The position numbers and the translations under genes were made by a program. From Octopus vulgaris (lineage: Eukaryota): a DNA stretch of 64,000 nucleotides. The notes beneath the pieces were generated by a model. The model saw only the letters and a program-made list of their open reading frames with translations, made no database searches and was not told the DNA's origin. The stretch spans positions 1,860,001 through 1,924,000 of the forward strand of contig OX597821.1 in NCBI GenBank assembly GCA_951406725.2, written 5' to 3'. Positions 10,985 through 58,708 of this stretch are shown in pieces. How positions within the stretch are numbered: position 1 is the stretch's first letter; each line of letters opens with the position of its first letter.

Positions 10985-11558
10985 TGTTGGCAGTATGTCT
11001 CAAATTTTAGGGGAGGAGGCTACATGAATACATCGACCTCAGAGTTTTGTTGGAACTTAGTTTAACGACCCCTACAAACGTAGACAGACGACATACCACT
11101 AAGCATTTTGCCCGGAATGCTAACGATTCTGCCAGCTCACCGCCTTAATAAGGCTATAAATAATCCTTTATAATATAGGCGCTAGGCCTGCAATTTGGGG
11201 GAGGGGATAGTCAATTTCAATGACTACAGTGTTTCACTGGTAGTCAATTTAGCGATCCCAAAAGAATGGAGGGCAAAGCCGACCTCGGCGAAGTATGAAC
11301 TCAGAACGTTGCGGCTGACGAAATACCTATTTCTTTACTGCCCACAAGGAGCTACACACAGAGGGGGAAAACAAGGACAGAAAAACGGACAAAGTCGATT
11401 ATATCGACCCCAGTGCGTAACTGGTACTTATTTAAACGACCCCGAAAGGATGAAAGGCAAAGTTGACCTCGGCGTTATTTGAACTCAGAACGTAGCGGCT
11501 GACGAAATACCGCTACGCATTTCGCTCGTCGTGCTAACTTTTCTGCCAGCTCGGTGCC
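10985..11558 (-). mobile_element. SINE family B, adjacent copies
   Basis: Reverse complement of ggcggcgagctggcagaa...gagttcaaattccgccgaggtcgactttgcctttcatcctttcggggtcg, with internally repeated modules. Confidence 0.8.
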
Positions 11559-11889
11559 TTATGAAGCTATAAATAATACCATCAAAAATCCCGGTCAGAT
11601 AGAAAATGTATACTGTACTTGGGACACGAAACAGCATGTCTTGTATATCACAGAAACAATGCAATCCTTCGAATATCTCTATCCATTTAAGAAACTTTAT
11701 TCGTACCAACGAAATGTTAGGAGATATGGTCTACAGTTCTCTGAATAGCTTCTGACTTTTTCTATGAAAAGCTTTCCTTAACTCAATATTTCAATCTTAT
11801 AATTTATTGCGCGTGGAGAAGTCATTAAGATGTTGCAGTAATGAGTCAAAAATTGTGGATATGGATATATATATATATATCCATATATA

Positions 11890-14413
11890 TTCAATCTGCC
11901 CAATGTCAGATGGCCCGAGGGCCTTTCTCTCCCAGGAATGACAAGATGTGAACGAGGACAGGCGAGGTCTCTCCTGAACCTCATCAACACCCTGTACATG
12001 GAGCAGGTAATACTCCAACCAACCAGGGCAGGTAACACACTGGATCTCTGCTTCACAAATGACATGGATCTCATCCATAATGTGAAAGTGACACCGACAC
12101 TACTCTCGGATCACAACATGGTAGAGCTGACCATGTACGGGCCAAAAGAGAGCACGGACATGCAGCCTACAAGAAACCCTCAAAATCTTTCCAGCTTGAA
12201 CTACCATAAGGCAAACTGGAAACAAATTGAGAAAGAGATCCTCAAACAAAACTGGCCTGAATGTCTCTCCTCGCCAGACATTGACGTGAAACTTCAACAA
12301 TTCATGTCTGTAATGCAAGCCATATGCTACAAATGTGTCCCAGAGAGAAAGGCCACTGTACACAAGAACAAAATCCCCAGAGAGAGGAAAATTTTAATGA
12401 GACGGCGTACGAAATTTTCAAATCGCCTAAACAAACAGATTGAAAGCAGTGAAAAGTCCCGCCTAAAAATAAAACTGTTGGAAATCGAAAAATGTCTGCA
12501 ACTCTCCCATGAAAAAGAAAGAGCAGACAAAGAAGCCTGGGCTATAGAAAACATAAAATCTAACCCCAGAGCTTTCTACAGGTATGCCAAAGAAACAGCT
12601 ACAGTGCACTGTAGAATAGGGCCACTCCTCGAAAAGGATGGCACACTTACAGGAAAACCAATGAGGGTAAGTGAAATACTGAATGAGCAATTCAAGAGTG
12701 TTTTCACTCCACCCCTTGGGCATCTCCAAATCACCAATCCAACTGACTTTTTTACCACTGCAGATATAAAATCAGAGGCGGCGACGATAGATTACATCGA
12801 TATAAAGGAAGACGATGTAACCAAGGCTATAGATGAAATGAAAACAGACTCAGCTACTGGCCCCGATGGATTCCCGGCAATCCTCCTAAAAGCATGTAAG
12901 AGAGTCCTAGCAAGACCACTGCAGTTCCTCTTTCAGAGCTTCCTTGCAGCTGGCAAACTTCCAGGAAAACTGAAGGAAGGTAAAATATGCCCCATTCATA
13001 AAGGAGGTAGCAGAGCGGAAGCCAAGAACTATAGACCTATCTATCTGACCTCACACATCAGCAAGGTCATGGAACGAATAGTCAGAAGGAAGCTGATCAC
13101 CTTCCTTGAAGAAAATGACTTGCTGCCCGACACCCAACATGGTTTCCGACCAGGGAGAAGCTGTTTAACTCAGCTCCTACGACACTATGACTGGGTGCTG
13201 AAACGGCTGCTCAACCACTCAAATGTGGAAGTGATATATCTCGACTTTGCAAAGGCCTTTGATAAAGTCGATCATGGAATGATATGTCACAAACTGCGTG
13301 ATCTCAACATAGTTGGAAAACTGGGAGAATGGCTTCATGACTTTCTGAAGGATAGAAGTCAGGTGGTAGTAGCCAATGGGGCCACCTCCATTAACACACA
13401 AATAGTGAGCGGTGTTCCGCAGGGCACTGTTCTGGGACCACTACTGTTCATAATGGCCCTCTCAGACATGCCCTCAGCCACGCAGAGAGCCACGATCACA
13501 AGTTATGCAGATGATACAAAAGTTTCACAGGCAATACAGAACCCTGAGGACACTAAACACCTGCAATGTGAGCTGGACGAAATATACAAGTGGGCTGAAA
13601 AGAATAGCATGCAGTTCAATGCTGGAAAGTTTCAAGCTTTATACTATCAGCATGCAAAACTGAATGCAATACCCAATGAATACACTGGACCCGGAGGGAT
13701 TGCAATCCCAGAGGCACAATCAGTGCGTGACCTGGGTATTCACATGAGTGATGACGCGACCTTTCATGTACATGTTGCTAAACTGACAATGAAATGTAGA
13801 CGGCTGGCTGGATGGATTCTTAGAACCTTTAGAACAAGAGAACAAGAAACCATGATGGTCCTCTGGAAGACACTTGTCCTAAGCCACTTTGACTATTGCT
13901 CTCAGCTATGGTCACCATCCAGTGTCAAGTTGATCACAGAACTTGAGGCGATCCAACGAAGCTACACAAAGAAGATAGCCTCTATGCAGAATGTAAGCTA
14001 CTGGGAAAGACTCAAGAGATTAAAATTATATTCCCTGGAGCGTAGGCGGGAAAGATATGCCATAATATACATCTGGAAGATCCTGGAGGGAAGTGTCCTG
14101 AACTTTGGCATCGAGAGTTACGCAAATGCCAGAACTGGGCGCACTGCGTGGTGCCTAGGACTCCAAACCTGCCATCAAGATGTAGGACAAGATACTGTGA
14201 TAGCCTGGCTTCCGAGGCCCACAGCTCTTCAATATCCTCCCGAAGAACCTGAGAGACCTGCATGGGGTGGATACAGATGTCTTTAAAATGAAGCTGGATC
14301 TCTTCCTGTCAGGTGTCCCAGATGAACCAACTTCACGGCAGGAGGGGCAGATGAGGGCAGCTGCATCGAACTCTCTCATGCACCAAATAGCAGTTGCTAG
14401 AAAGCCTCCATGA
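11890..14413 (+). pseudogene. LINE ORF2 (APE C-terminus plus reverse transcriptase), 5'-truncated, with two distal frameshifts
   Basis: Motifs PTRAGNTLDL, SDHNMV, NYRPI, QHGFR, YLDFAKAFDKV, SGVPQGTVLGP and YADD. After -1 shifts near 14141 and 14207 it continues GFRGPQLFNILP...VPDEP...RAAASNSL to TGA at 14411-14413. Confidence 0.88.
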
Positions 14414-19190: not shown

Positions 19191-19254
19191 TTATAAAAAC
19201 ATTAAGAGTAAAGCCTGTTCTATGTTATGCATTGTACCAGTATCAGAAGTTAGA

Positions 19255-19721
19255 AAGTCGACCTCGGCGAAATTTGAACTCAAAACATAAAGATAGACGA
19301 AATACCTATTTATTTACTGCCCATACGTGGCTACACAGAGAGGGGACAAACAAGGACAGACAAATAGATTAAGTCTACTATATCGACCCCAGTGCGTAAC
19401 TGGTACTTAATTCATCGACCCCGAAAGGATGAAAGGCAAAGTCGACCTCGGCGGAATTTGAACTCAGAACGTAGCGGCAGACGAAATACCTATTGCTTTA
19501 CTACCCGCAAATGGCTAAACACAAAGGGGTCAAACAAGAACATATAAAGGTATTAAGTCGATTTCATCGACCCCAGTGCGTAACTGGAACTTAATTTATC
19601 GACCTTGTAAGGATGAAAGGCAAAGTCGACCTCGGCGGAATTTGAACTCAAAACGTAAAGATAGACGAAATACTGCTAAGTATTTCGCCTGACGCGTTAA
19701 CGTTTCTGCCAGATGACCACC
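19255..19721 (-). mobile_element. SINE family B (multimeric)
   Basis: Two full ~190-bp internal modules plus a partial one. Confidence 0.85.
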
Positions 19722-20177
19722 TGTGTATAAACCATTTTAATTTCATTAAACAGGACCATTTGTTCACTGTCCTTTAAATCCCGACAAGTTCGCCTTTACC
19801 TATGAGAAACACTGGCTTCACGCATCAGTGTTGTTGTGTCCCCCCATCTATTGTCTCTATTGTCAAGTTTATTTACATCTATTCCACGGGTATATGACGC
19901 ATTTTCGCACAGCTGTTTTGGGTTGGGCAATCCGATTCGAACTTATTTTATTTCAAACGCTTTCTTCTCTGGTCATTATGGCATCGAGAAAATATTTTCA
20001 TTCCAGGTCAAAACTAACTTGAAATAACAACTACTGGATATAGTGTAACTTTCTGCTTCCCTTTCTATCGTCCTCTCTTTGTTCGTGTTTGCGAACATAC
20101 GTTTTTAAGTCCATGAAAAGAGAAAGAACATTTATATCAATGGTTTCAATTGGTAAGTTGTATTGTATAATTCCTAT

Positions 20178-23795: not shown

Positions 23796-24189
23796 GCAGT
23801 GAGCTGGCAGAATCGTTAGCACGCTGGCCGAAATGCTAAGCGGTATTTCGTCTGTCGTTACGTTGTGAGCTCAAATTCCGCCGAGGTCAACTTTGCCTTT
23901 CATCCTTTCGGGGTCGATAAATTAAGTACCAGTTACGCTCTGGGGTCGATATAATCGACTTAATACCTCTGTCTGTCCTTGTTTGTCTCCTCTATGTTTA
24001 GCCCCTTGTGGGTAATAAAGAAATAGGTATTTCGTCTGCTGTTATGTCTGAGTTCAAATTCCGCAGAGGTCGACTTTGCCTTTCATCCTTTCGGGGTCGA
24101 TTAAATAAGTACCAGTTACGCACCAGGATCGATGTAATCGACTTAATCCCTCTGTCCTTGTTTGTCCCCTCTATATTTAGCCCCCTGTA
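23796..24189 (+). mobile_element. SINE family B (dimeric)
   Basis: Head gagctggcagaatcgttagc followed by two modules. Confidence 0.85.
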
Positions 24190-25869: not shown

Positions 25870-26060
25870 AATATTTATATTAATCTGTTGTGTCTCAAAA
25901 TGTTTGTCTATTGCACTGATATATCTATGTATAATTGAATATGTATATATATATTCAAAAATACAAGGAATGGCCATCAATAGGACATTCGACTCACTGA
26001 AATTGAAAGAGAAAATAAATTCTGAAATTGAAAGAGAAATAAAAACGTTTACCCCTTTCA

Positions 26061-26155
26061 TTTCAGGACTATGCATAGTTTCGGCAAAATTTGGTAAACA
26101 AATTAATTAAATTAAATTAAATTTATTTACACCTGTCGTACCACGTCAGCAGAGA
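26061..26155 (-). ncRNA. Decayed copy of the type I hammerhead
   Basis: Reverse-complement copy of 26752-26846 with core CTGACGT and a disrupted helix I. Confidence 0.6.
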
Positions 26156-26751
26156 AGCCAAGGACGAGTATATATCCACGATGCGATGGTAAGGAAGCTT
26201 CCAGTCTATATCCTCTAAATTTTCAAAATCTACCGCAATCGCGCGGTTTTCTCAGCAGCAGATATAAACTGCTGATTTAATTTAATTTCAAATTTAGCCA
26301 AAAATCATTAATTAATAAATATAAGGGTAGCAAAAAATTCTAGAAAAAATTCTCCGCTACCAGCGTTCCAGCGAGAAAGAAAAGATAATCAAAGACTATA
26401 TAATATACATAAAAAAATACAAGGAATGGCCATAATAGGACATTCGACTCACTAGAAAGAGCAGCCAAACTCAAACCGCTAATAGTTGTAATTCTGAAAT
26501 TGAAAGAGAAATAAAAACGTTTAGCCCTTTCATCTTTGGACTATGTATAGTAGCGGAGAATTTTATCTAGAATTTTTTGCTACCCTTATATTTATTAATT
26601 AATGATTTTTTTGGCTAATTTTAAAATTAAATCAACAGTTTATATTTGCTGCTGAGAAAACCGCGCGATTGCGGTAGATTTTGAAAATTTAGAGGATATA
26701 GACTGGAGGCTTCCTTACCATCGCATCGTGGATATATACTCGTTCTTGGCT

Positions 26752-26846
26752 TCTCTGCTGACGAGGCACGCCAGCTGTAAATAAATTTAATTTAATTTAA
26801 TTAATTTGTTTACCAAATTTTGCCGAAACTATGCATAGTCCAGAGA
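26752..26846 (+). ncRNA. Type I hammerhead ribozyme with extended helix II
   Basis: Helix I TCTCTG/CAGAGA; core CTGACGA at 26758-26764; helix II GGCA/TGCC enclosing an AU-rich hairpin; GAAA at 26825-26828; helix III ACTA-tgca-TAGT; GUC cleavage triplet ending at 26840. Confidence 0.85.
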
Positions 26847-27071
26847 TGAAAGGGGTAAACGTTTATATTTCTCTTTCAATTTCAGAATTACAACTATTAG
26901 CGGTTTGAGTTTGGCTGCTCTTTCTAGTGAGTCGAATGTCCTATTATGGCCATTCCTTGTATTTTTAAATGTATATTATATAGTCTTTGACTATCTTTTC
27001 TCTCTCGCTGGACCGCTGGTAGCGGAGAATTTTTTTCTAGACTTTTTTTGCTACCCTTATATTTATTAATA

Positions 27072-27165
<94 letters not shown>

Positions 27166-29047
27166 CATACATACATATATACACGTATATATGTATGTAC
27201 AGTTCTAGAAAGAGTAATGACTACTTGATCAACGATTAACATTTAAATATGTTTAATATTTAATCATTCAATGTCTGTTAAATACCATCCTAAGCAATAT
27301 AGTACTCTGCTTATTCACATATTGTACATAGAGTATAAACGAGAAATTAATAGAGGAAAACATAATGAGTTATGTTTTATTAAAATACAAACTATAAAGT
27401 GTTTATATATGAATCGTATTTACTTATTAATCTGGTTATTATATTTTTAACATCCAAAACATTTATTATCAGAGAAAAATGGTTAAAGTTTTGAAATCTC
27501 GGCTACATTTTTGTTAGTTTAATCATGGCCTATTTTGATTTTGATGAAGCAATTAGAATCAAACTTGTTTAACAGCAAGCCATTTACTGTACGAAACGAA
27601 ATTACGATTGTAAGCGATTTTACTACTGTCCATATGAGCTGAAGTGTGCTTTCACAGATGGAAAATCCATAACAGGTAACGACGAATTAGAGGATAAACT
27701 AAGGGATGGGGTGAGGGTCAAACTAACAGACTCCCCCCTGCTTTCTACAAATATAAGAGTCGCCGTAATGGTTTATACGCAATGCATTCCTCTCCGATTA
27801 AAAGAAAAAGGTATAAAATATGTAAGGTCATAAACAATGTCGACAGCAAATATGGTTCTTCTGCAATGCATAACAATATTTTAAGTTAATTTCGATGATA
27901 CAACTTAGGCCTGCTGTAAAGCAAGTGAAAATTTAGCTGTAATTTCTGCGATACTTGTGCGTAAAAAATAGCCGAATAAATACGTCACTTAGTGGGATTT
28001 TAATAAAACTTCATACATGCATTATCTCATAATTGATTTATAAAACATTTTTGCCTTGTCTATACTTTACTGAGTCAAACGATGATATTTTGGATATTTA
28101 TTTTCTTCGCTGGTGACAGCATGTTTCATCATGTATTGAGTTCTACATCAAAAAAATCAAAAGCAAAAAAGCACTAACAAAATGTTAAAACAGCCCCAAA
28201 GAACATTAACATAGGCAGCAAAACACTGTTTAATAAACAAGTACGAGGTTATATTTCAGCCCCAAATGAGTGATTAAAAAAAATTCATAAAGATGCTATT
28301 TCTGAGTGTATACATATATACTAACGCTTGGAATTATTAATGGCAGAATGATCAAAAACCGGTTCAGATTTCTAGGGAAATTAATTTGAACGCAGTGATA
28401 GCGAATATTTAGTATGGACAAATAAACATTAATGTTCTTATAGGGATGTGGTGGAAGCAAGGCATAAAATATCAGTGTTGCAGCAAATAGCAATGTGTTT
28501 GCTCGGTAAACAGATGGTAATTTGTTAAATTCCTGTTTGTGTTTTCGTTGTGTTTTCGTTGTTGATGTTAATGTTTACATCAGGCTAGGTGTAATTTGAG
28601 AGAGATTTCATCACTATTTCTAACATATTGTTCGACGGTTACACTTTTATGACGGTATGAACTGTCATATGGAAACTTTTATACATACATCGAGACGCGC
28701 AAAAACATTATACGCATATATATACACATACACATACACAGACATATATTCATGTATGATTTGCTTGCATTACTTACTAATTATAAATCGCTTACATTTA
28801 TCTACACATTTTTCATTCTTCTAACATCTATGTCATTTCATCATTTCTACGAGGATACACGAAGAAGATATATGAATATATAAATGTTAAAAGGCCTAAA
28901 AGAAAGTGATTATGTGATCGCCGTTATACTTCACGCAAAACTATATTCGAATTATAATAATCAGAGCTGATGCCACTTTATATGTTTTGGTTTCATCAAA
29001 TCGCTAATTTCATGAAGTTAATACTCAATGTTAATTCATATATTGAA

Positions 29048-29617
29048 GGCGGCGAACTGGCAGAAACGTTAGCAAGCTAGGCGAAATGTTTAGCGCTATT
29101 TTGTCTGCCGCTACGTTCTGAGTTCAAATTCCACCGAGGTCGACATTACCTTTCATTCTTTCGGGGTCGATTAAATAAGTATCGGTTACGCACTGGAGTC
29201 GATATAATCGACATAATCCGCTTGTCTGTTCTTGTTTGTCTTCTCTGTGTTTAGCCCCTTGTGGGTAGTAGAGAAATAGGTATTTCGTCTGACATTACGT
29301 TCTGAGTTCAAATTCCGCCGAGGTTGACTTTGCCTTTCATCCTTTCGGGGTCGATAAATTAAGTTCCAGTTACGCAGTGGGGTCGATGTAAACGAGTTAA
29401 TCCCTTTGTCTGTCCTTGTTTGTCCCCTCTATATTTAGCCCCTTTTCGGCAATAAAGAAATAAGAAATGTTGCACGACGGCCGAAATATTTAGCAGTATT
29501 TCGTCTCAATCTCCATAAACTAAGTACCATTTCCGTCACGGTGTCGATCTAATTGACTGCACCCCCCCCACCCATAATAAAAAAAATTCGGACATTGTGC
29601 CTAGATTAGAAAAGAAT
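29048..29617 (+). mobile_element. SINE family B (multimeric)
   Basis: Head ggcggcgaactggcagaaacg with repeated modules. Confidence 0.85.
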
Positions 29618-29702: not shown

Positions 29703-29933
29703 TATTTCTTTATTGCCCACAAGGGGCTAAACATAGAGGGGACAAACAAGGACAGACAAACGGATTAAGTCGACTACATCGACCTCAGTACGTAACTGGT
29801 ACTTAATTTATCGACCCCGAAAGAATGAAAGGCAAAGTCGACCTCGGCGGAATTTGAACTCAGTACGTAAAGGCGGACGAAATACCGCTAGGCTTTTCGC
29901 TCGGCGTACTAACGTTTATGCCAGCTCGCCGCC
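29703..29933 (-). mobile_element. SINE family B
   Basis: Reverse-complement monomer. Confidence 0.85.
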
Positions 29934-30371
29934 TTTACGCCTTTAGCTTGTATATATGCACATATGTGTATGTGTGCGTGTGTGCGCGTACGTTTGAGTG
30001 TGTGTATATTTATGAATATGTATATATATATATCAGTGTACACGCATGTATGTACGTACAATTCATTTATATTTAAATGCATATATAGTTACATGTATAA
30101 ATGCTTATATACATATATACTTCCGTATGGTAGGCGATGTGTCCATCTGCCTCTTCGACGCTCGAAGTCCATAATGTCCTTCATCACATATAAAGTTCGA
30201 ATCGTCTGGTGCAGTTGGTACTTAACACCTAAACACGATTTTATTGTCTGAGGGTCGAGTCTACCGTTCATCCTTTCGAGATCGATAGGATAAATACCAG
30301 TCGAGCAGTCGGTTTGATGTAGTAGACTTAATATCTTCTCCGGAATCGTAGGCATTGTGCCAAATTTAAAG

Positions 30372-30663: not shown

Positions 30664-30967
30664 TACATACATATATATATATGCGTGTCCATATAAAGAC
30701 ACAGACATTCAGATACTCTCACACATGTCTAAGCTGATATGATATGTCGTTTGGAGGGATCTGCATAAAGGACTGTTGCATTTTGATTTAAAATCAATCA
30801 AATATTTACCATGTGTTTTGGTGTGTATATATATATAGTATACTTGAAATATACCCGCACAAAGACATCCCTCCCTTTGTAGATACGATATATATATTTA
30901 TGTATACATACATTTATATATATACATACATGTATATATACATACATATACATATATATATATATAC

Positions 30968-31017
<50 letters not shown>

Positions 31018-31033
31018 TTTATTATATAGAAGG

Positions 31034-31084
31034 AGCTTCTACAGGACTAGTACTGTTTCATTCAAGAGAAATCTTCAGGAAGCT
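31034..31084 (-). ncRNA. Type I hammerhead ribozyme (inverted copy)
   Basis: Reverse complement of 33087-33137. Confidence 0.75.
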
Positions 31085-31488
31085 ATTTAACAAGAATTGT
31101 ATTAGCATTTATACATTTAGAGGAGTGGTGGTGGGGGACTTTTTGGGGGTAGGCATAGCGCAAAATATCATACTTGGGGGAGTGGTCAAGGTAATAAAAA
31201 AATAAAAAAAATAAAAAATAAAAAAATAAAATAAAAAGATAAAATAAAAGAATAAAAATAAAAAATATAAAAAATATAAAAAATATAAAAAATATAAAAA
31301 ATATAAAAAATATATATAAAAAAATATATAAAAAAATATATATATAAAATATATATATATATATATATAAAATATATATATAAAAAAAAGGGGGGGATAG
31401 AGTTATAGGTAAATAAGGAGATTCTCACTTATACCTATACACACATGTATACGTATCTACACACACATACGCACATACACATATATCT

Positions 31489-31549
<61 letters not shown>

Positions 31550-31929
31550 CCTACACATACACACATACATACATACAAATATACATATACATATATATAT
31601 ATACAATCCAATACAGGCCCAATCCCTAATTTTAATTTTATTATCTTCATTTATTACTTTTGTTATCTTTGATCGCTAAGGCTAAGAATCCTGGCAATAG
31701 CTGCTTGTCCATTTGTCTGTCTACTAGAAGGCAAGTACTCATTCCCGCACGCACACTCATTAGCACGTACATTCACCCATTCGTACACTCATACACATAC
31801 ACGTACGCACGCGTTATATTCATACATACAAACATCTACATACGTTCACGTATATACACATACGTACTCGTACCTACAGATTCGTGTCTACACTTTAGGA
31901 GGCTAGTCTATACATATACACCAATAAAT

Positions 31930-31961
<32 letters not shown>

Positions 31962-32014
31962 CCGCATATACATACACACACACACATATATATACTCCTA
32001 CATACAGATACATA

Positions 32015-32056
<42 letters not shown>

Positions 32057-32264
32057 TACATACACATATACATATACATATATACACATACATACACATA
32101 CACACATACACACACATACATACACATATATATACATACACAAACATATATACACACACATATATATACATACACACATACACACATACATACGTATACA
32201 TACATACATACATCTATACATCCATACTTACATGCATTTATACGCATACACACACCCATCTATA

Positions 32265-32303
<39 letters not shown>

Positions 32304-32584
32304 TCACACATACATATACAAATCTACGCACACACATACATACATACACGTATACGCATACACGCACATACACATATACATGCGTACCCATACACGTGCA
32401 CACACGCACGCGCATCCATATAAATACACACACACACATATATATATACACGTGTGCAAGCATACATACATACTCATACGCGCACACATACTTACAAATA
32501 CATATATGCACACACTTACACACATATATATATACATACACATATACATGCATACATACATATATGCATACATACACACACGCA

Positions 32585-32622
<38 letters not shown>

Positions 32623-32699
32623 TATATACACATATATATACATACATAGACATACATACACATACATACACATACACATACGTACACACACATATACAC

Positions 32700-32730
<31 letters not shown>

Positions 32731-33086
32731 CACATATACGCATACATATATACACATATACATACATATACATACACACACACATACATATATATATATT
32801 TTATATATATATATATATATATTTTATATATATATTTTTTTATATATTTTTTTATATATATTTTTTATATTTTTTATATTTTTTATATTTTTTATATTTT
32901 TTATATTTTTTATTTTTATTCTTTTATTTTATCTTTTTATTTTATTTTTTTATTTTTTATTTTTTTTATTTTTTTATTACCTTGACCACTCCCCCAAGTA
33001 TGATATTTTGCGCTATGCCTACCCCCAAAAAGTCCCCCACCACCACTCCTCTAAATGTATAAATGCTAATACAATTCTTGTTAAAT

Positions 33087-33137
33087 AGCTTCCTGAAGAT
33101 TTCTCTTGAATGAAACAGTACTAGTCCTGTAGAAGCT
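33087..33137 (+). ncRNA. Type I hammerhead ribozyme
   Basis: AGCTTC-CTGAAGA-t-TTC-tctt-GAA-t-GAA-ACAG-tactagtc-CTGT-A-GAAGCT. Helix I is 6 bp, helix III is 4 bp with a palindromic ACTAGT loop, and the GUA cleavage site ends at 33131. There is a U-U pair at the base of helix II. Confidence 0.78.
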
Positions 33138-33218
33138 CCTTCTATATAATAAATTAATTTTACTCTGCTATGTATTGAGTACCTTACTTACTGTGGTTAA
33201 CCCCGAATCAACCCGGGA

Positions 33219-33256
<38 letters not shown>

Positions 33257-33524
33257 TATATGTATATATACATATTTATATTTATACACACTCATATACT
33301 TTTATATATGTACATATACATATGTCCACATTTATGTACCGTTATATGAATATGCAATATATATAAATATACTATATACACAAGCATATATATGTCTTTA
33401 TATATGTATGCATATACCGTATCTAGATATGCCTGTTTATATATATATATATGTATGTATATATAAATACATACATATATATATATATACATATACATAC
33501 ATATATACATATACATTCATATAC

Positions 33525-33555
<31 letters not shown>

Positions 33556-36305: not shown

Positions 36306-39300
36306 GAGGCCCCTGTATGAAGATTAGTGGTAATTTTTTTTTTTTTTTAAATGAAAACTTAATAATTTAACTTTACTTGAAAAGAACATTTCTGACAGTC
36401 CACCGAATCGCTTGTCCAATAGTTATACAGGAAGCGCGCCTGTCAGGAGGCTGCCAGCCTCATGGCGAAAAATTTTCAAATGGCAAAATATCTTCCCTGA
36501 ATACAAACCTGGAAGGTCACTTAAACGGGATTTGTCCCAAATTAAGCCCCCAAAGTTCACCACCACAACGACCAAAAAATCAAAAAAGTACAAGAACTAA
36601 ATGGAACTGGGAAGAATATAAAGTAGTAATATATGCTAGCAGACCAAACCTGGATGAAAACAGATCAGCCAGGAAAGAAATAACGAAGCTGAGTGGAGGA
36701 ATGTTGGACCACAAGCGTTGACTGAAAGGCGACCATCTGCCGAAACAACTCAAGATCCTGAAGAAAAAGGAATATATAATGACCCTAGAAAAAACATCCC
36801 GGAAAATGATGTCGAAACAGAATTTGAAGACCACATGTTTGTTGAACAACGCAGAAAATCTATCATTGAAATAAAGCAAGAAGTTCTGAATGAGCTTGCA
36901 GTTGTAGGCCATACAACTATGGAACCACTCCATAAACTCTCAAATGCACACCAACATAAAACACAAATAAAAATTGGCAACTGCGTGACACAAGAAATCA
37001 TACACCAACTAAAACCCGATCTCAATAAATTAAATGAAATTATTTATTCTGTCGCTAAGGTAATCGAAAGACGCTGTTTAACACCCAAAAAGCCAACAGT
37101 ACCAAATTCGAAAACAAATCAAACTGGAAGAGTAGAATTGAAACTGAAATTGAATCATTGCGAAGAGAGATATCAATATTAACCGAGCTAATCTCTGGAA
37201 ATGATGTAAGACCAAGAAAAGGCAGGAAGATTGTGAGAAAATATGGACATTCAACAAGAGAAGAACTAATGTCAGCGAAAGAAACACTTAAACAAAAAGT
37301 TCAAGCAAAAGCTCAGAGAATACGCAGATTTGAGAAAAGAATCAAATTCTACAAACAAAATAAGATGTTCAAATCCAATGCCAAATCATTTTACAGGGAA
37401 ATAGGGAAAGAAAAAATAACCATTGAAAATCCACCCCTAATGGAAGAAGTTGAAATCTTTTGGAAGGGGATCTGGAGTGATGAGAAACCATACAATGAAA
37501 ATGCAGAGTGGATCAAACGCACCCAAGATGATTACAAAAATCTACAAGAACAGGTATGGGAAGACATCTCAATCGCCAACCTAAGGAGGGCACTAACGAA
37601 GGCTCATAAGTGGAAATCTCCTGGTATTGATAGAGTACCAAATTTCTGGCTCTCATCACTCGTCCGCACACAAAATGTTAGTAATACTATTTAAAAGTAT
37701 TATGAAAGACCCGAAAAAAAAACAACCCATTGGATGGCAAATGGTATTGCTTACCTCCTCCCTACAAATAACAAAACGAAAGAACCAAAAAAACTACCGG
37801 CCTATTACATGTTTATCTACCACCTATAAGATTTTGACATCTATTCTAGTAGAGAAAACATATAAGTTTATGGAAGAGAATAACCTCTTTCCCACTGAAC
37901 AAAAAGGATGCAGACGAGGCTCATACGGATGCAAAGATCAGCTCCTAATTAATCGCATGATCCTTGAGAACTGCAATAAAAAGCGCAGAAATCTCAGCTC
38001 TTTATGGATTGATTACAAAAAAGCCTTTGACAGCATACCGCATTCGTGGATTCTCAAATCGCTGGATATTTTCAAAATTTCTCCTGTGATTTCAGATTTT
38101 TTAATGCATAATATGTCACTATGGAACACGAAGCTCCAATTATATCATTCTAATGGAGTATTGCACTCAAACAACATTAGCATAAACTGTGGAATTTTCC
38201 AAGGTGACTCACTTTCACCACTAATTTTCTGCATAGCACTAATACCACTCTCAAGTGAACTGAATAGAACAGGATATGGCTACAAAATTGACAACAAGAA
38301 AATAAGCCATCTATTTTATATGGATGATTTAAAGCTATATGGCAAAAATGATGAAGAGCTTGAAGGATTATTAAATACCGTGAAAGGATTCAGTGATGAT
38401 ATCGGGATGAGGTTTTGCCTTGAAAAGTGTACCAAAGCCACTTTTAAGAAAGGGAAATTGGTAAAGTCTAGTTCAATCGAATTAGATGTCGAAACAGTAA
38501 TAAAGGAACTTGAGCAGGAACAAACCTATAAATACCTAGGAATAAATGAAGGCTCGGGTATCCAGCATGCAAGCATGAAAGAGAAGGTTAGGAAGGAATG
38601 TTATAGAAGAGTTCGAGCAGTCCTGAAGTCTGAGCTGAATGCATATAATAAGGTGTTAGCCATAAATTCCTTAGCAGTACCAGTTGTTCTTTATAGCTTC
38701 AATGTGCTTAACTGGAATACCAGTGAAATAATGAAAATTGACAGAAAAATCCGCAAGCTACTGACATGTAATAAGATGCACCATCCGAAGGCAGACGCGG
38801 ATCGCCTTTACCTTCCCAGAGCTCAAGGAGGTCGAGGTTTGATCCAGCTTGAACTTACATGCAAAACCACCACAATCGGACTGGCCAAATACCTTGAAGA
38901 AACCAACGATTGGATGATAAAACTTGTTGAAAAACATGAAAGACCGAAAAAACTTCACTCTATTCTCAAAGAGAGCAAAAAATTCGCTGTTGATCTCTTA
39001 GATACCCACCAGATTGATCAGGCTGAAGGAAATGCGTTAATTGCAGCTGCAAAGAAAATAAAATTAATTGCAAAGACAAAAGCACATGAAAATTTAGCTA
39101 GCAGATGGGAACAGAAACCTCTCCATGGCAAGTATGTGGCCCGTAGCAAACAAGCAGATGTCAACCAGAAACACACGCACCAATGGTTACGAAGCTCAGG
39201 GCTAAAAGCAGAGAGTGAAGGTTTCATATTAGCTGCTCAAGACCAAAGCTTATTAACCCGGAACTACCAAGCCAATGTGATAAAAAATGGAGCTGACCCA

Positions 39301-39993
39301 AAATGCCGATTCTGTAACGATGAGATTGAAACAATAGACCACCTAATCTCAGGGTGTAGTGTCTTAGCACCTGCAGAATATAAAGCAAGACATGACAGAG
39401 TCGGCCAATATTTACATTGGACAATATGTCGGTATTATAAAATCAAAACCGCTGACAAATGGTATAAACACCATCCTGAAGCCGTGACTGAGGGAGAAAA
39501 TGTGTCGATTCTATGGGACGTCCCCGTACAGACCGACAAAACTATAAAAGCTAATAAACTGGATATTATTATAAAAGATCAGACAAAAAAGAAGTGTTTA
39601 TTAATTGACATGAGTATCCCTTGCGATCACAATATAGCGGCGAAAGAATTTGACAAGATTAGTGAATATAAAGACCTGCCAGTGATTGTAGGATCTCTAG
39701 GAATGATAAAAAAAGGTACTGAAACCTATTTGAAAATGATTCCAGGCCTAACATCCCTACAGGAAGTGCAAAAAATCGTATTAACTGGAACGGCTCATGT
39801 ACTAAGAAGAGCACTATCGCTGTGAAAACAACATCCATCCATGAATTTATTTATTTATTAATTTTTAAATACATATTTTATCTGTGAATTTGCGTGTGTC
39901 AACTGAGAATGCATATATGAGCTTCTCTACTCTAGGTGTACGGAAAATACTCGGCGAGAAACGGAAGAAAATTTGAAGAAAGAAGGAAAAAAC

Positions 39994-41109: not shown

Positions 41110-41506
41110 ATGTAAAATGAAAATAATAACCCTTCTATTGTAGCCACAAGACCTAACATATGGTGAGAGGGGGATAGTCACTTACATTTCATTGGTACTT
41201 AATTTATCGACCGCGAAAGAATGAAAAGCAAAATTAATCTCGTCGGAATTTGGAGCCAGAACGTGAAGACGGAACAAATACCTATTTCTTTACTACCCAC
41301 AAGGGGCTAAACACAGAGGGGACAAACAAGGTCAAACAAACGGATTAAGTCGATTATATCGACCCCAGTGCGTAACTGGTACTTATTTAATCGACCTCGA
41401 AAGGATGAAAGGCAAAGTCGACCTCGGGGAATTTGAACTCAGAACGTAGCGGCAGACAAAATACCGCTAAGCATTCCACCCGGCATTCTAACCATTCTGC
41501 CAGCTC
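41110..41506 (-). mobile_element. SINE family B
   Basis: Reverse-complement dimeric copy. Confidence 0.8.
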
Positions 41507-45995: not shown

Positions 45996-46138
45996 CATCT
46001 TTAGAAATTGGAATTATATAGTTATGTTCCAGACTTATTTGTAGTTAAGAAGCCACAAGCCTCAGTATCCTTCACCTATATTCAATCATGTTATGCGGCA
46101 TCGGATCCTACGGTTGTTATTGCTTTTATCGTCGTGAA

Positions 46139-46520
46139 GGCGACGAGCTGGCAGAAACGTTAGCGCGCCGGGCGAAATGCTTAGCAGTATTTCGTCTGCC
46201 GCTACGTTCTGAGTTCAAATTCCACCGAGGTCGACTTTGTCTTTCATCCTTTCGGGGTCGATTAAATAAGTACCAGTTACGCACTGGGGTCGATATAATC
46301 GACTTTGTCCGTTTGTCTGTCCTTGTTTGTCCTCTCTGTGTTTAGCCCCTTGTGGGTAGTAAAGAAATAGGTATTTCGCCCGTCGCTACGTTCAGACTTC
46401 AAAATTCCGCCGACGTCTGTTTTGCCTTTTATTCTTTCAGGGTCGATAAATTAAGTACCAGTTACGCACTGGGGTCGATATAATCGACTATTTCCCTTTC
46501 CCCAAATTTGAAGCCTTTTT
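46139..46520 (+). mobile_element. SINE family B (dimeric)
   Basis: Near-consensus head and two modules. Confidence 0.85.
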
Positions 46521-51197: not shown

Positions 51198-51239
51198 TTA
51201 TCGTATTATGTTCCACTGGGAATAAGGCCGTAGTAAATA

Positions 51240-52141
51240 TACATACATACAAACATACATACATACATACATACATACATACATACATACATACATACGT
51301 ACATACATACATACATATACATACATACATACATTCATACATACATAAAATACATACATACATACATACATAACATACATACATACATACATACATACAT
51401 TCATACATACATACATACATACATACATACATACATACATTCATACATATATAACATACATACATACATACATACATACATACATTCATACATACATACA
51501 TACATACATACATACATTCATACATACATAACATACATACATACATACATACATACATACATACATACATACATACAAACATACATACACACACACATAC
51601 ATACATACATACATACATTCATACATACATACATACATACATACATACATTCAAACATACATACATTCATACATACATACATATATACATACATACATGC
51701 ATACATACATACAAACATACATACACACACATACATACATACATACATACATACACACATTCATACATACACACATACATACATACATACATACATACAT
51801 ACATTCATACATACATAACATAATACATACATACATACATATATACATACATACATAACATACATACATACATACAAACATTCATACATACATACATTCA
51901 TACATACATACATACATACATACATACATAACATACATACATACATACATACATAACATACATACATACATACATACATTCATACATACATAACATACAT
52001 ACATACATACATACATATATACATACATACATAACATACATACATACATACATATATACATACATACATAACATACATACATACATACATACATACATAC
52101 ATACATTCATACATACATAACATACATACATACATACATAT

Positions 52142-52172
<31 letters not shown>

Positions 52173-52600
52173 CATACATACATACATACATACATACATA
52201 AATACATACAACATACATACATACATGCATACATATATATATACACACATACATACATACATACATACATACATAAATACATACATACATAAATACATAC
52301 ATACATACATACATACATGCATGCATACATACATAAATACATACATACATACATACATGCATGCATACATACATGCATATATATATATACACACATACAT
52401 ACATACATACATACATAAATACATACATACATACACACACACATACATACATGCATACATACGTACATACATACATACATACATACATAAATATATACAT
52501 ACATACATACACACATACATACATACATACATACATACATACATACATACATACATACATACATACATACATACATACATACATACATACATACATACAT
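51240..52600. repeat. (CATA)n array, ~1.36 kb
   Basis: Long tetranucleotide array with recurring variants cattcata, cataa and catgcata. Confidence 0.95.
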
Positions 52601-55600
52601 AGAAGAGCGTAGGCACGAAAAATAAAAGACGATTCCATTTTTTCTGAGCGTCATATGAATAGGCCTTTTTTGTTGCTCCCTCACTTGTCTCTATCCTTTG
52701 TTTATTTGTTGTTGATTTTTTGTGTACAATAAGATTATCTATGAAATAAAACATCCAATATCAAGGCAAGCAATCTCCGTGTGTGTTACATAATTCTGTG
52801 TGTCGAAAGGCAATTTAGATGTGTTTTACATATGGATATAAGTTTAAGTTTCGTTCATTTACATCAAAACCTAACATAGTCAATCAATAAATGTAAATCG
52901 AAAAACAAAAGTTCCAGGCTAAGTACTAAAATCGATATAATCGACTAAATCCATTGATGGTGGTTTTCCCGGCATGAAACACATCCAAAAATCTGAAACT
53001 AGCAAACAACAAAAACGAAAGAATACACTATTTTAACCGAATTTCCACTTGGTACTTCGTTCCCTTTTCCTTTTTGTTTAAACTATTATAGTTTTAATTT
53101 TATATTTTGTGATGTATTTTTTCCCAAAACTGCTTTTATATGAAATATTATCGAATAGCAATTGACTGAGATGGATTTAATTTTTGAGACATCCTCTAAG
53201 ATATGAATTAGTGGAACTAACCGAAACATTACAGTGAATCTGAAATAATGATTTGGTGATTTCAGTTACTTCCTGATAATTCAATTCAGTCGAGTTCATA
53301 TGATTATAGAATCTAGTAAATCAGTAATAAAATTTGTTGGATGTCATATAGATTAACACTAAACATAACTGTCTACACTATGACACAAAATTTTAATCCT
53401 TTTTTCTGTTAGGCCAGTAAGTGTTATTTCCTTTTTGCTTCTATCTAGAATTCAAACGAAATGACTACTATTCCCTTTAAACTTTGCTTTTGTGACCTGG
53501 ACATCGATGCTTTGAAACTGACCTATTTTTCCATTACATGTTAGACAGAGTGATCACTGTATTGCTGAAGCAGAAATATTGTTTTAGCAAAAATTCTGCA
53601 CAGATTTACTTGTCAGCTGCTTCGCCTAAACATTTGAACATATCCGTTGGTGGCTGACAATATGTGCGTCTTTGATCATGAGCAGACGTAGTGGGGGAGC
53701 ATCATAGCCATCTGTGGTGAGGGGTTCTTGGGATTTGAATAAATGTAGCAAAAACAAAATCTGAAGGAAATATTAGCCATTTTTAATACTTTCTAAGGGT
53801 CAGCAAACAAGAAAAAACAGTTGTTACCCAAGGACAAAAATCGTGTTATAAAGTGTCGTCGAATAACATTTATCAGAGCAACGTCCACTGCAGAAGAAGA
53901 ATGCAGTCATAAACAGGGAGATGACCATTATGTATTTATGGTCAATGTGACGTCTATCACAATGACCAGTGAACACCTAAGCGTATGAGAAGCTGGAGCT
54001 TTCGAAGCTTGCATACATTTCAACTCGGTAAGACCGGCTCTGTAAAGACTTACCCGGAAATAACAAAAAGACAAAAAACAACATCTAGAGAGCAACAATA
54101 GCAAGAATAACACAACGATAACAGCAACCGATAATAGTAAGGATATCAACTGTAAGTACTTTTTATGTTGTCTATACCGAGAAAGAGGTGCAGTGCTCTC
54201 GAAAATGCTCACTGATATTAATTAAGTTAGAGGCAATTTATATTCAGCTTGGCTTGGTATATTTCTGTTGCAGTATGGAACGCTTAAAGGAGAACAGAAG
54301 AAGAGAACAGGCAATCCGCAACCCTCTGGTGATCTACCTATTCTATCGTCTTACTACAGAACATTTATATAATTTTTCTCACATTCCTGACTCCTTCTGA
54401 ATGGATAATACTTATGCAAAAGTAAGGTCCGAAGAATGATTTTGGTATAGATTTTTCGTCAAGTCATTACTCCTTAAACAATATTCTGGTTCTGGAGAAT
54501 AGGAAACAAAAAGAAAACGTATTTGGGGATATGGCTCTCTCTAAGTAATATATGTGGCCACCGTGTATGAGTAGCAAATACTTTGGAGTTTTTGTATATT
54601 TGTATTTCTACATGATTACTGTGTAGAGTGGTTTTCTTTGATAACGAAAATCAACTAGTTGATAGATGTACTGATGCGGGACGGATCTATTGAACGTGTG
54701 TTGTAATATAAGCATTGGATGGCATGGACAAGAATCATTGTCTACGATTAGACTCTGAAGCAAAAAAAAAAACACTGACAGCAGAGTCCCTTTACATTCG
54801 AATTTATGCTAAATGATCAGATATGTAAGAAATGCATTTATATTTCAAGGGAAATTTGACAAGACAGTCAGTCGCCCGCTGACACTCGTTGACGCTACAT
54901 CGAAGAGGCCAGCAAACAGAAGAAAAAAGACATGCACCCAACACCAGAGCTGAAGACACCTCCGAAAGGGCGGGGGCCGCTACGTCAAAACGGTAGAGAA
55001 GTAGGGGCCGAAACCGGAGGTGGTTCCTCCTGATGATGTCTTGAGCTAACAGGATCCTATAAAAGAGCTGTTGTGGTAGAAGACCACGAAACACTGTTGA
55101 AATTCCTATGGAAGCCTACTTATAACAATTGTGTAGGAAGGGAAACAGAAAATCCCATGTTAAAGTTATAGGCCCACAATGCATATTAAAACATTTTGCA
55201 ACCTGGAAAGTCCAGTTCAGGTTAAATTTATGCTCTCAGATTTGCATCTCTGAAAGTTGTAAACTTGGAGATCGTAGGAGATATGATTCTGTGTAATACA
55301 ATAAAACTTTACAAAGTAATCGATATGATTCTTGCGTACTGCAGTATTTGGTGCAAACTCCCTGCTAAGAAGACGTTCCGTTATTTATCACTGCGTTTTT
55401 CACAAGCTGGTTTTCAAGTTCGAATTTTTGTAATATAGTAGATGATTGTACGAGCTAGTAAATATCAGGCAATCATATTAAGACCTGTTACAATTTTAGA
55501 CAAGTGAATCAATTATGGTTTGGCGTTCGTGTCAGAGATCTTTGTGTCTTGTTATAGAATTCTATAACACCTCTTGTCGTAGGCAGGTATTTTAAGTGAT

Positions 55601-58175: not shown

Positions 58176-58708
58176 CACAAGGGTTGGACAAAATAATGGA
58201 AACACCTAGCATCATAACATCATAATTTTGAAATGTCTATAAACTCGTCAAAAACTTGTTTAGTTTTGCGGTTTTTGATTTATTATTAGTGTTGCTTAAT
58301 ATGTTTTGCTAAAAGTGCTGTTCCTTTTCAAATATCATGACAAAAAGGTACTCCTACCCGAACTAGAAATGATCACAAATGTACAGCTCCCAAAATTACT
58401 GCAGAGCTTAATGGCTACTTTGTGAACCCAGTTTCCACAAAAACTGTTTGCCGAGAGCTGCACAAAGCCGGATTTCAAGGGAGGGCTGCAATCAGAGAAT
58501 CACTACTTTCAAAAGCAAACGTTGCAAAGCGTTTATCCTGGAGTAAAAACTGACAGAATTGGTATCTAGAGCAGTGGAAGTATGTTATTTTCTCCGACGA
58601 GTCATCGTTTACCTTATTTCCGACCACCGACCGAGTATACGTGTGGAGGCAACCGAAAGAATCATTTGACCCAGACTGCCTTCTTCCAATTGTTAAACGT
58701 AGAGGAAG

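Follow-up and report, generated by a model that had tools for sequence, protein, structure and literature searches.

Inverted-repeat comparison of the 64-kb stretch of DNA analysed here (the window, in which N is absent) identified as its longest inverted repeat a left arm at 31013-31382 on the minus strand and a right arm at 32789-33158 on the plus strand, with a spacer of 1406 nt between them. The arms are exact reverse complements (370/370 nt), and their identity covers, letter for letter, a 187-nt A/T tract, which in the right arm is the T-rich low-complexity tract at 32789-32975 (+), recognised by its composition. An earlier reading of the letters alone (the sequence-only reading) had described 370-bp inverted arms that stay identical through about 190 bp of such DNA, and both points hold. 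The remainder of the right arm, 32976-33158 (+), is the unique part of a pLTR-like arm and a member of a high-copy family, whose contigs were present in all four sequencing runs mapped. The left arm represents an inverted, 5′-truncated, tail-less copy of the 3′ end of the element (an inverted pLTR). A unique 64-nt tail (33159-33222, +) adjoins the right arm only; it ends in an AC-rich stem-loop (fold z −2.9) that may close at about 33224, and it would provide a second start site of reverse transcription. The span of 31013-33222 proposed in the sequence-only reading does contain this tail, but had left it, and its presence on the right side only, unexplained. On the left, the element is flanked by a (TA)n-rich microsatellite (30888-31012), the likely insertion target, and on the right by an (AT)n microsatellite (33224-33544), as judged by the sequence and the repeat listing. 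Both flanks are thus (TA)n, as in an AT-rich or (TA)n target, and loose ends of other family copies also enter (AT)n.

The interior (31383-32788, +; 1406 nt) consists of degenerate (CA)/(TA) microsatellite with short unique islands. It is strongly strand-skewed, with 229 CA against 18 TG (0.85), and this skew was equalled by only 2 of the 295 other overlapping 1.4-kb windows, both of them on an (ATAC)n array near 51.2 kb, which mildly favours a tract borne by the element. Apart from the interior, that array (51239-52601; 1.36 kb, 340 copies, 89% matches) is the window's sole kilobase-long tract with a strong strand skew. The inner junction, 31383-31425, opens on A7G7 and a run of purine-rich sequence that contrasts with the CA-skewed remainder; it is possibly non-templated or template-switched. 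No second copy of the islands at 31386-31445 and 31601-31770 was present within the window. The stop-to-stop frames of the interior were of low complexity, and the one island frame examined had no Pfam match, in agreement with the earlier description of about 1.4 kb of degenerate repeat with unique islands and no credible ORF.

No frame for a reverse transcriptase or a GIY-YIG endonuclease was found within 31013-33222 or nearby, as judged by frames and Pfam. In Pfam scans of 8 and 143 window frames, the curated cut-offs were passed only by two ORFs with RVT_1 and a piece of a Tc3 transposase, which all lie outside the element. The first of these is an 813-aa LINE ORF at 11845-14286 (+) with RVT_1 and a weak endonuclease match, which we take to be CR1/Jockey-like. 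The second belongs to a frameshifted non-LTR retrotransposon at 36658-39825 (+), with RVT_1 in a 742-aa frame; the best database homologues of its RT ORF (37597-39822) are about 62-69% identical. The transposase piece is a Tc1/Tc3 fragment at 58341-58550 (+; PF01498, E 3.8e-11). A SINE-like dispersed repeat of 230-420 nt was found by repeat comparison in both orientations, its copies 81-89% alike and with 184-nt partial tandems (11215-11560, 19254-19722, 23796-24047, 29046-29462, 29703-29939, 41193-41434 and 46133-46407). No host exon was detected by Pfam in the 143 of 244 candidate frames of the window.

A second inverted element of unrelated sequence lies at 25937-27070. Its arms are 88% identical over 443 nt (88-94% alike), a partial direct repeat is present, and a hammerhead match at 26758 (+), with stems of 6, 4 and 6 bp and a palindromic stem-loop III, had no equally strong counterpart in 50 shuffles. 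Judging by these features, it is an older Penelope-type element 4 kb from that at 31013-33222, and the layout thus recurs within the window. Its hammerhead, at about 26752-26850 (+), has an AT-rich insert in stem II, with (TA)n on the right flank; the core of the mirror hammerhead near 26060-26160 is damaged.

A motif scan found in each arm of the 31013-33222 element a CUGAAGA...GAAAC...GUA core with a stem I of 6 bp and a stem III of 4 bp, facing outward. In the right arm, this type I hammerhead motif occupies 33087-33137 (+), with CUGAAGA at 33093, GUA at 33129-33131 and predicted cleavage 3′ of 33131; it sits in the pLTR, in the same sense as the tail. The mirror copy occupies 31034-31084 (−), with the scan match at 31078 and predicted cleavage 3′ of 31040. 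The two outward-facing hammerheads of the sequence-only reading are therefore present as core motifs. The scan had 0 matches in 100 shuffled 64-kb windows, and none in metagenome contigs, viral contigs or prokaryote genomes. That each arm carries a complete hammerhead with a GUA site, as the sequence-only reading further stated, is true of the core alone: stem II is atypical, having 3 bp and being closed by U·U rather than G10.1-C11.1, a pair listed as highly conserved in hammerheads (Cervera and de la Pena, PMC4209133). Rfam, likewise, gave no hammerhead match at the gathering score or among the 121 matches up to E=10; its sub-threshold matches over microsatellites were rejected as composition artefacts. 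Position N7 of a hammerhead core is free. In the sequencing runs described below, the listed variants that reach 5% touch the core at N7 alone (A33097T, A to U in the RNA; 11-21% of depth in 4/4 runs), which favours a real hammerhead motif.

Folding predictions suggest that this motif would be largely inactive in its own transcript. By prediction, a rival hairpin at 33129-33146 (+; pair probability 0.93-0.98 in context, z −5.4) would sequester the cleavage site together with the stem I 3′ strand. As the transcript extends from 33140 to 33146, the probability of stem I falls from 0.68 to 0.02, and it is at most 0.02 once this downstream hairpin has been transcribed. As a monomer, the ribozyme would thus be mostly inactive according to these predictions.

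The arm together with the tail was present in 20 of the 24 public sequencing runs listed, from 9 studies and 3 organisms, one of which may be the window's own source, and including runs of 2-8 million letters. We mapped 32962-33234 in four of these runs, X1, X3, X5 and X13, and obtained 2209, 1668, 92 and 1186 contigs, respectively. The family would thus count thousands of copies; the summed contig depth, near one million, cannot serve as a copy count, since contigs that are short and overlap inflate it. Among the rows listed (24 of 129), loose ends at 33154 enter (AT)n in 12 contigs of X1, 12 of X3 and 14 of X13, and X5 has single contigs with loose ends at 33154 and at 33158; family copies therefore run into (AT)n at 33154-33158, the equivalent of the terminus of the left arm. 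As coverage of the tail, too, is deep in 4/4 runs and continues to 33234, copies end either before or after it. Two such family termini are a signature of Penelope-like elements (PLEs). No contig spanning 32962-33234 was found in the four runs among the pieces listed (32 of 5242). In seven contigs of X1 and two of X13, the tail was joined to different upstream sequence, which likely reflects a second subfamily sharing the terminal cis-element. The tail-heavy depth of X5 was left out of consideration, since contigs cannot show RNA ends and the DNA run X13 is uneven too.

The two arms share more than their overall sequence. Both have A at 33120, where 86-92% of family depth has T, and both are without a 10-nt stretch that other family copies have behind 33050. 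As both arms carry the same minority family states, they point to one template, and one template copied in one event is, from the sequence, the best reading of the arms. Their identity then dates the insertion event: with 0 differences in 370 nt, the 95% upper bound of divergence is 0.8%. The insertion is therefore likely recent, in line with the very young age proposed earlier.

By its structure, the element likely works like an EN+ PLE insertion product. We rejected an autonomous EN+ PLE, as no ORF with a PLE reverse transcriptase and a GIY-YIG endonuclease was found, and assigned the element to truncated or non-autonomous PLE-type insertions, given its inverted 5′-truncated copy, one-sided tail, pLTR hammerhead and (TA)n target. 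These features, with hammerhead-like motifs in place, agree with the published PLE layout and with the Penelope-type origin claimed in the sequence-only reading. In the relevant sections of Craig et al. (PMC8557442), an inverted 5′-truncated copy frequently occurs, with a 30-40 nt tail at one end, (TA)n targets are given for Naiad and Hydra, and inverted pLTRs are described as frequent, as the sequence-only reading had stated; the structure is therefore not unusual. The same layout appears in the corresponding part of a curation guide (PMC8969392). EN+ PLEs (Penelope/Poseidon, Neptune, Nematis and Hydra) share with our element, according to those sections of PMC8557442, the inverted 5′-truncated copy, the one-sided tail, the terminal type I hammerhead, (TA)n and the lack of a discernible target duplication. 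They differ in that our element has no ORF, a tail of 64 nt rather than 30-40, and a microsatellite interior. The Hydra-1_Obim hammerhead shown there is of other sequence, with a stem II of 7 bp. The dispersed SINE-like repeat and the microsatellite density point to an octopus as the likely host. If so, the figures of PMC13282606 would bear on it: Penelope-like elements account for 6.83% of the O. vulgaris assembly, and 336 of their insertions are recent.

Other known systems resemble the element in part. Poseidon PAc of Anolis, as presented in the parts of Frangieh et al. (PMC11167929) on which we draw, also has a hammerhead upstream of an AC-rich stem-loop, two termini defining the tail and an AT-rich target. 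Its hammerhead overlaps the ORF start, whereas no ORF follows the putative ribozyme of our element; both ATGs near the hammerhead meet a stop within four codons. Animal non-LTR retrozymes (excerpts of PMC7229834 and bioRxiv 10.64898/2026.07.22.740005) are likewise non-coding, likely PLE-dependent and of high copy number, with a type I hammerhead. They are head-to-tail tandems of units of a few hundred nt, whereas the window has two copies only, inverted and 1.4 kb apart, so the locus does not offer the tandem-dimer or circular-RNA route, and the assignment to retrozymes was rejected. Naiad and Chlamys PLEs share microsatellite targeting and inverted arrangements, and Chlamys has non-autonomous derivatives, but they are mostly without hammerheads in the relevant parts of PMC8557442, and we rejected them because the hammerhead core is present in the arms. 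The sequence-only reading had also stated that some PLE clades carry (CA)n tracts; in the same parts of that paper, (CA)n is the insertion target of Chlamys and is not reported as cargo. Our search, which covered published papers, found no description of this family, which may already be catalogued in Repbase, in Dfam or in the curated octopus library, for which PMC13282606 lists 190 Penelope-like consensus sequences. The passages of PMC12602865 and PMC8967140 available to us hold nothing on it, and one exact 20-mer was absent from two published supplements, a weak test as the 20-mer includes a minority letter and was searched on one strand.

We consider it likely that 31013-33222 is a single recent Penelope-type insertion, in which one source RNA was copied twice from two start sites. 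In the proposed course of events, the element would rely on a protein provided in trans, which would nick each strand of a (TA)n target; the RNA would be reverse-transcribed from two neighbouring internal start sites. The long cDNA, of about 1.84 kb, would begin at the tail stem-loop and run from 33222 back to 31383, whereas the short one, of 370 nt, would begin about 64 nt upstream and run from 33158 back to 32789. Joined head to head, they would yield inverted identical arms, outward-facing hammerheads and a one-sided tail. The identity, the orientation and the one-sided tail would thus arise in one step, as both cDNAs come from the same RNA. The interior would then be the 5′ part of the long cDNA. 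The enzyme, priming on both strands here, the succession of the steps and the origin of the interior from the same RNA are inferred. The course is modelled on experiments in vitro reported in the parts of PMC11167929 mentioned above, in which a PLE protein acts on both strands of AT-rich DNA by cutting and extending them, with two internal starts in an AC-rich stem-loop and a tail that is the stretch between them; there, the PAc hammerhead depended on the protein, and insertion did not require the hammerhead. Against a single PLE event stand the failure to find an autonomous partner, the tail of 64 nt against the published 30-40, and the TA-rich sequence on both sides of each arm.

In a variant of the single-event reading, put forward in the sequence-only reading and in our view possible though rather doubtful, 31383-33222 would in its entirety form the body of a specialised non-autonomous PLE subfamily, which takes a CA-rich microsatellite along wherever it inserts. 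The interior is indeed far more strand-skewed than host DNA, non-autonomous PLE derivatives have been described (in portions of PMC8557442 and bioRxiv 10.64898/2026.07.22.740005), and the T-rich junction at 32962-32971 had a summed depth of 5468 in X1, suggesting several copies. That junction was, however, without depth in the other three runs, and most family copies are unlike the window copy upstream of 32980, where they have a different, also T-rich, upstream end. The window itself is also microsatellite-rich, with perfect repeats covering 13% of it compared with 19% of the interior. Moreover, a 5′-truncated copy with the long UTR of an autonomous element, or host DNA transduced from a donor locus, would fit equally well, so that the interior may be any of the three.

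Two independent head-to-head insertions of a very young short subfamily in (TA)n, around 1.4 kb of host DNA and possibly gene-converted later, appear unlikely. The family is very abundant, and 30,000 copies in an assumed 2.7-Gb genome would give about 125 such close pairs; the inner edge of the identity falls exactly in a (TA)n run, and the TA-rich sequence on both sides of each arm would be accounted for. Nevertheless, a subfamily of 100-1000 copies would give only 0.001-0.14 pairs, the minority alleles and the slippage-prone 187-nt tract are common to both arms letter for letter, and the tail is on one arm only, as in single PLE events.

An assembly fold-back, or polishing that equalised two similar arms, is very improbable, even though the identity is perfect across low-complexity DNA and such structures are noted to trouble assemblies in the consulted part of Craig et al. 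(PMC8557442). A fold-back would leave no non-palindromic spacer of 1.4 kb, nor would it end near the tail-less terminus of the family. The arms carry minority rather than consensus alleles; polishing of one arm towards the other is possible. Finally, a DNA transposon of foldback or MITE type, bounded by long terminal inverted repeats, can be dismissed almost entirely, since the long perfect inverted ends, the lack of an ORF and the TA-rich target are joined here to asymmetric ends, one running 64 nt past the repeat, to a hammerhead in each arm and to family copies with one or the other of two termini, whereas symmetric TIRs with a target duplication (unreadable in (TA)n) were not found.

The contigs also revealed an A>G signal in the hammerhead. 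In X5, a putative RNA run, A>G at 33123, 33131 and 33134 made up 12.4, 6.1 and 6.9% of depth (11, 9 and 10 contigs), compared with 0-0.06% in the three other runs. Position 33131 is N17, the cleavage nucleotide of the right-arm hammerhead. Cleavage sites follow the NHH rule (section on cleavage sites of PMC3923133), and G at N17 strongly impairs minimal hammerheads while tertiary-stabilised ones tolerate it (part of PMC3884650). All three sites are in a UAG or AAG context, for which the probability of a chance occurrence among the covered A's is below 0.001, with the context picked after seeing the data; invertebrate ADARs have a weaker preference for a 3′ G in the portion of PMC5625713 that we used, where Penelope repeats of a lizard are already reported as heavily edited. 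The depths at the three sites are nearly equal (117, 118 and 122). One variant copy that is expressed would produce this pattern and would hardly show up in pooled DNA. In addition, the signal is confined to one strand, with only one T>C (in one contig) among the listed variants, unlike the prediction for an inverted-repeat hairpin such as the 370-bp dsRNA that the sequence-only reading had proposed as a potential ADAR substrate. On the basis of one putative RNA run, we therefore lean slightly against real editing as the source of the signal, and a regulatory role for editing of the hammerhead seems improbable. A flip of the fold by editing was rejected as not robust: with G as a proxy for inosine, the probability of stem I was 0.62 on the family-majority background and 0.07 on the window copy. 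In our literature search, no paper brought hammerheads, ADAR editing and retrotransposons together. The boldest picture would be an abundant non-coding Penelope-dependent family with a hairpin-silenced hammerhead and a sense RNA edited by ADAR at three adenosines including the cleavage nucleotide, of which a young subfamily spreads CA-rich microsatellites and 370-bp inverted repeats; we think it has little chance of being correct, but if true, A-to-I editing would be a natural control on a retroelement ribozyme.

Taken together, the structure at 31013-33222 is likely mostly ordinary, as its layout has already been described for Penelope-type elements. It is a clean and very young instance of the inverted-pLTR-plus-tail product already known, and it fits the two-start-site mechanism seen in vitro. 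The finding would matter more if the A>G at the cleavage nucleotide were editing, and, if the interior is multi-copy, the element would represent a route for retroelements to seed microsatellites in a microsatellite-rich genome.
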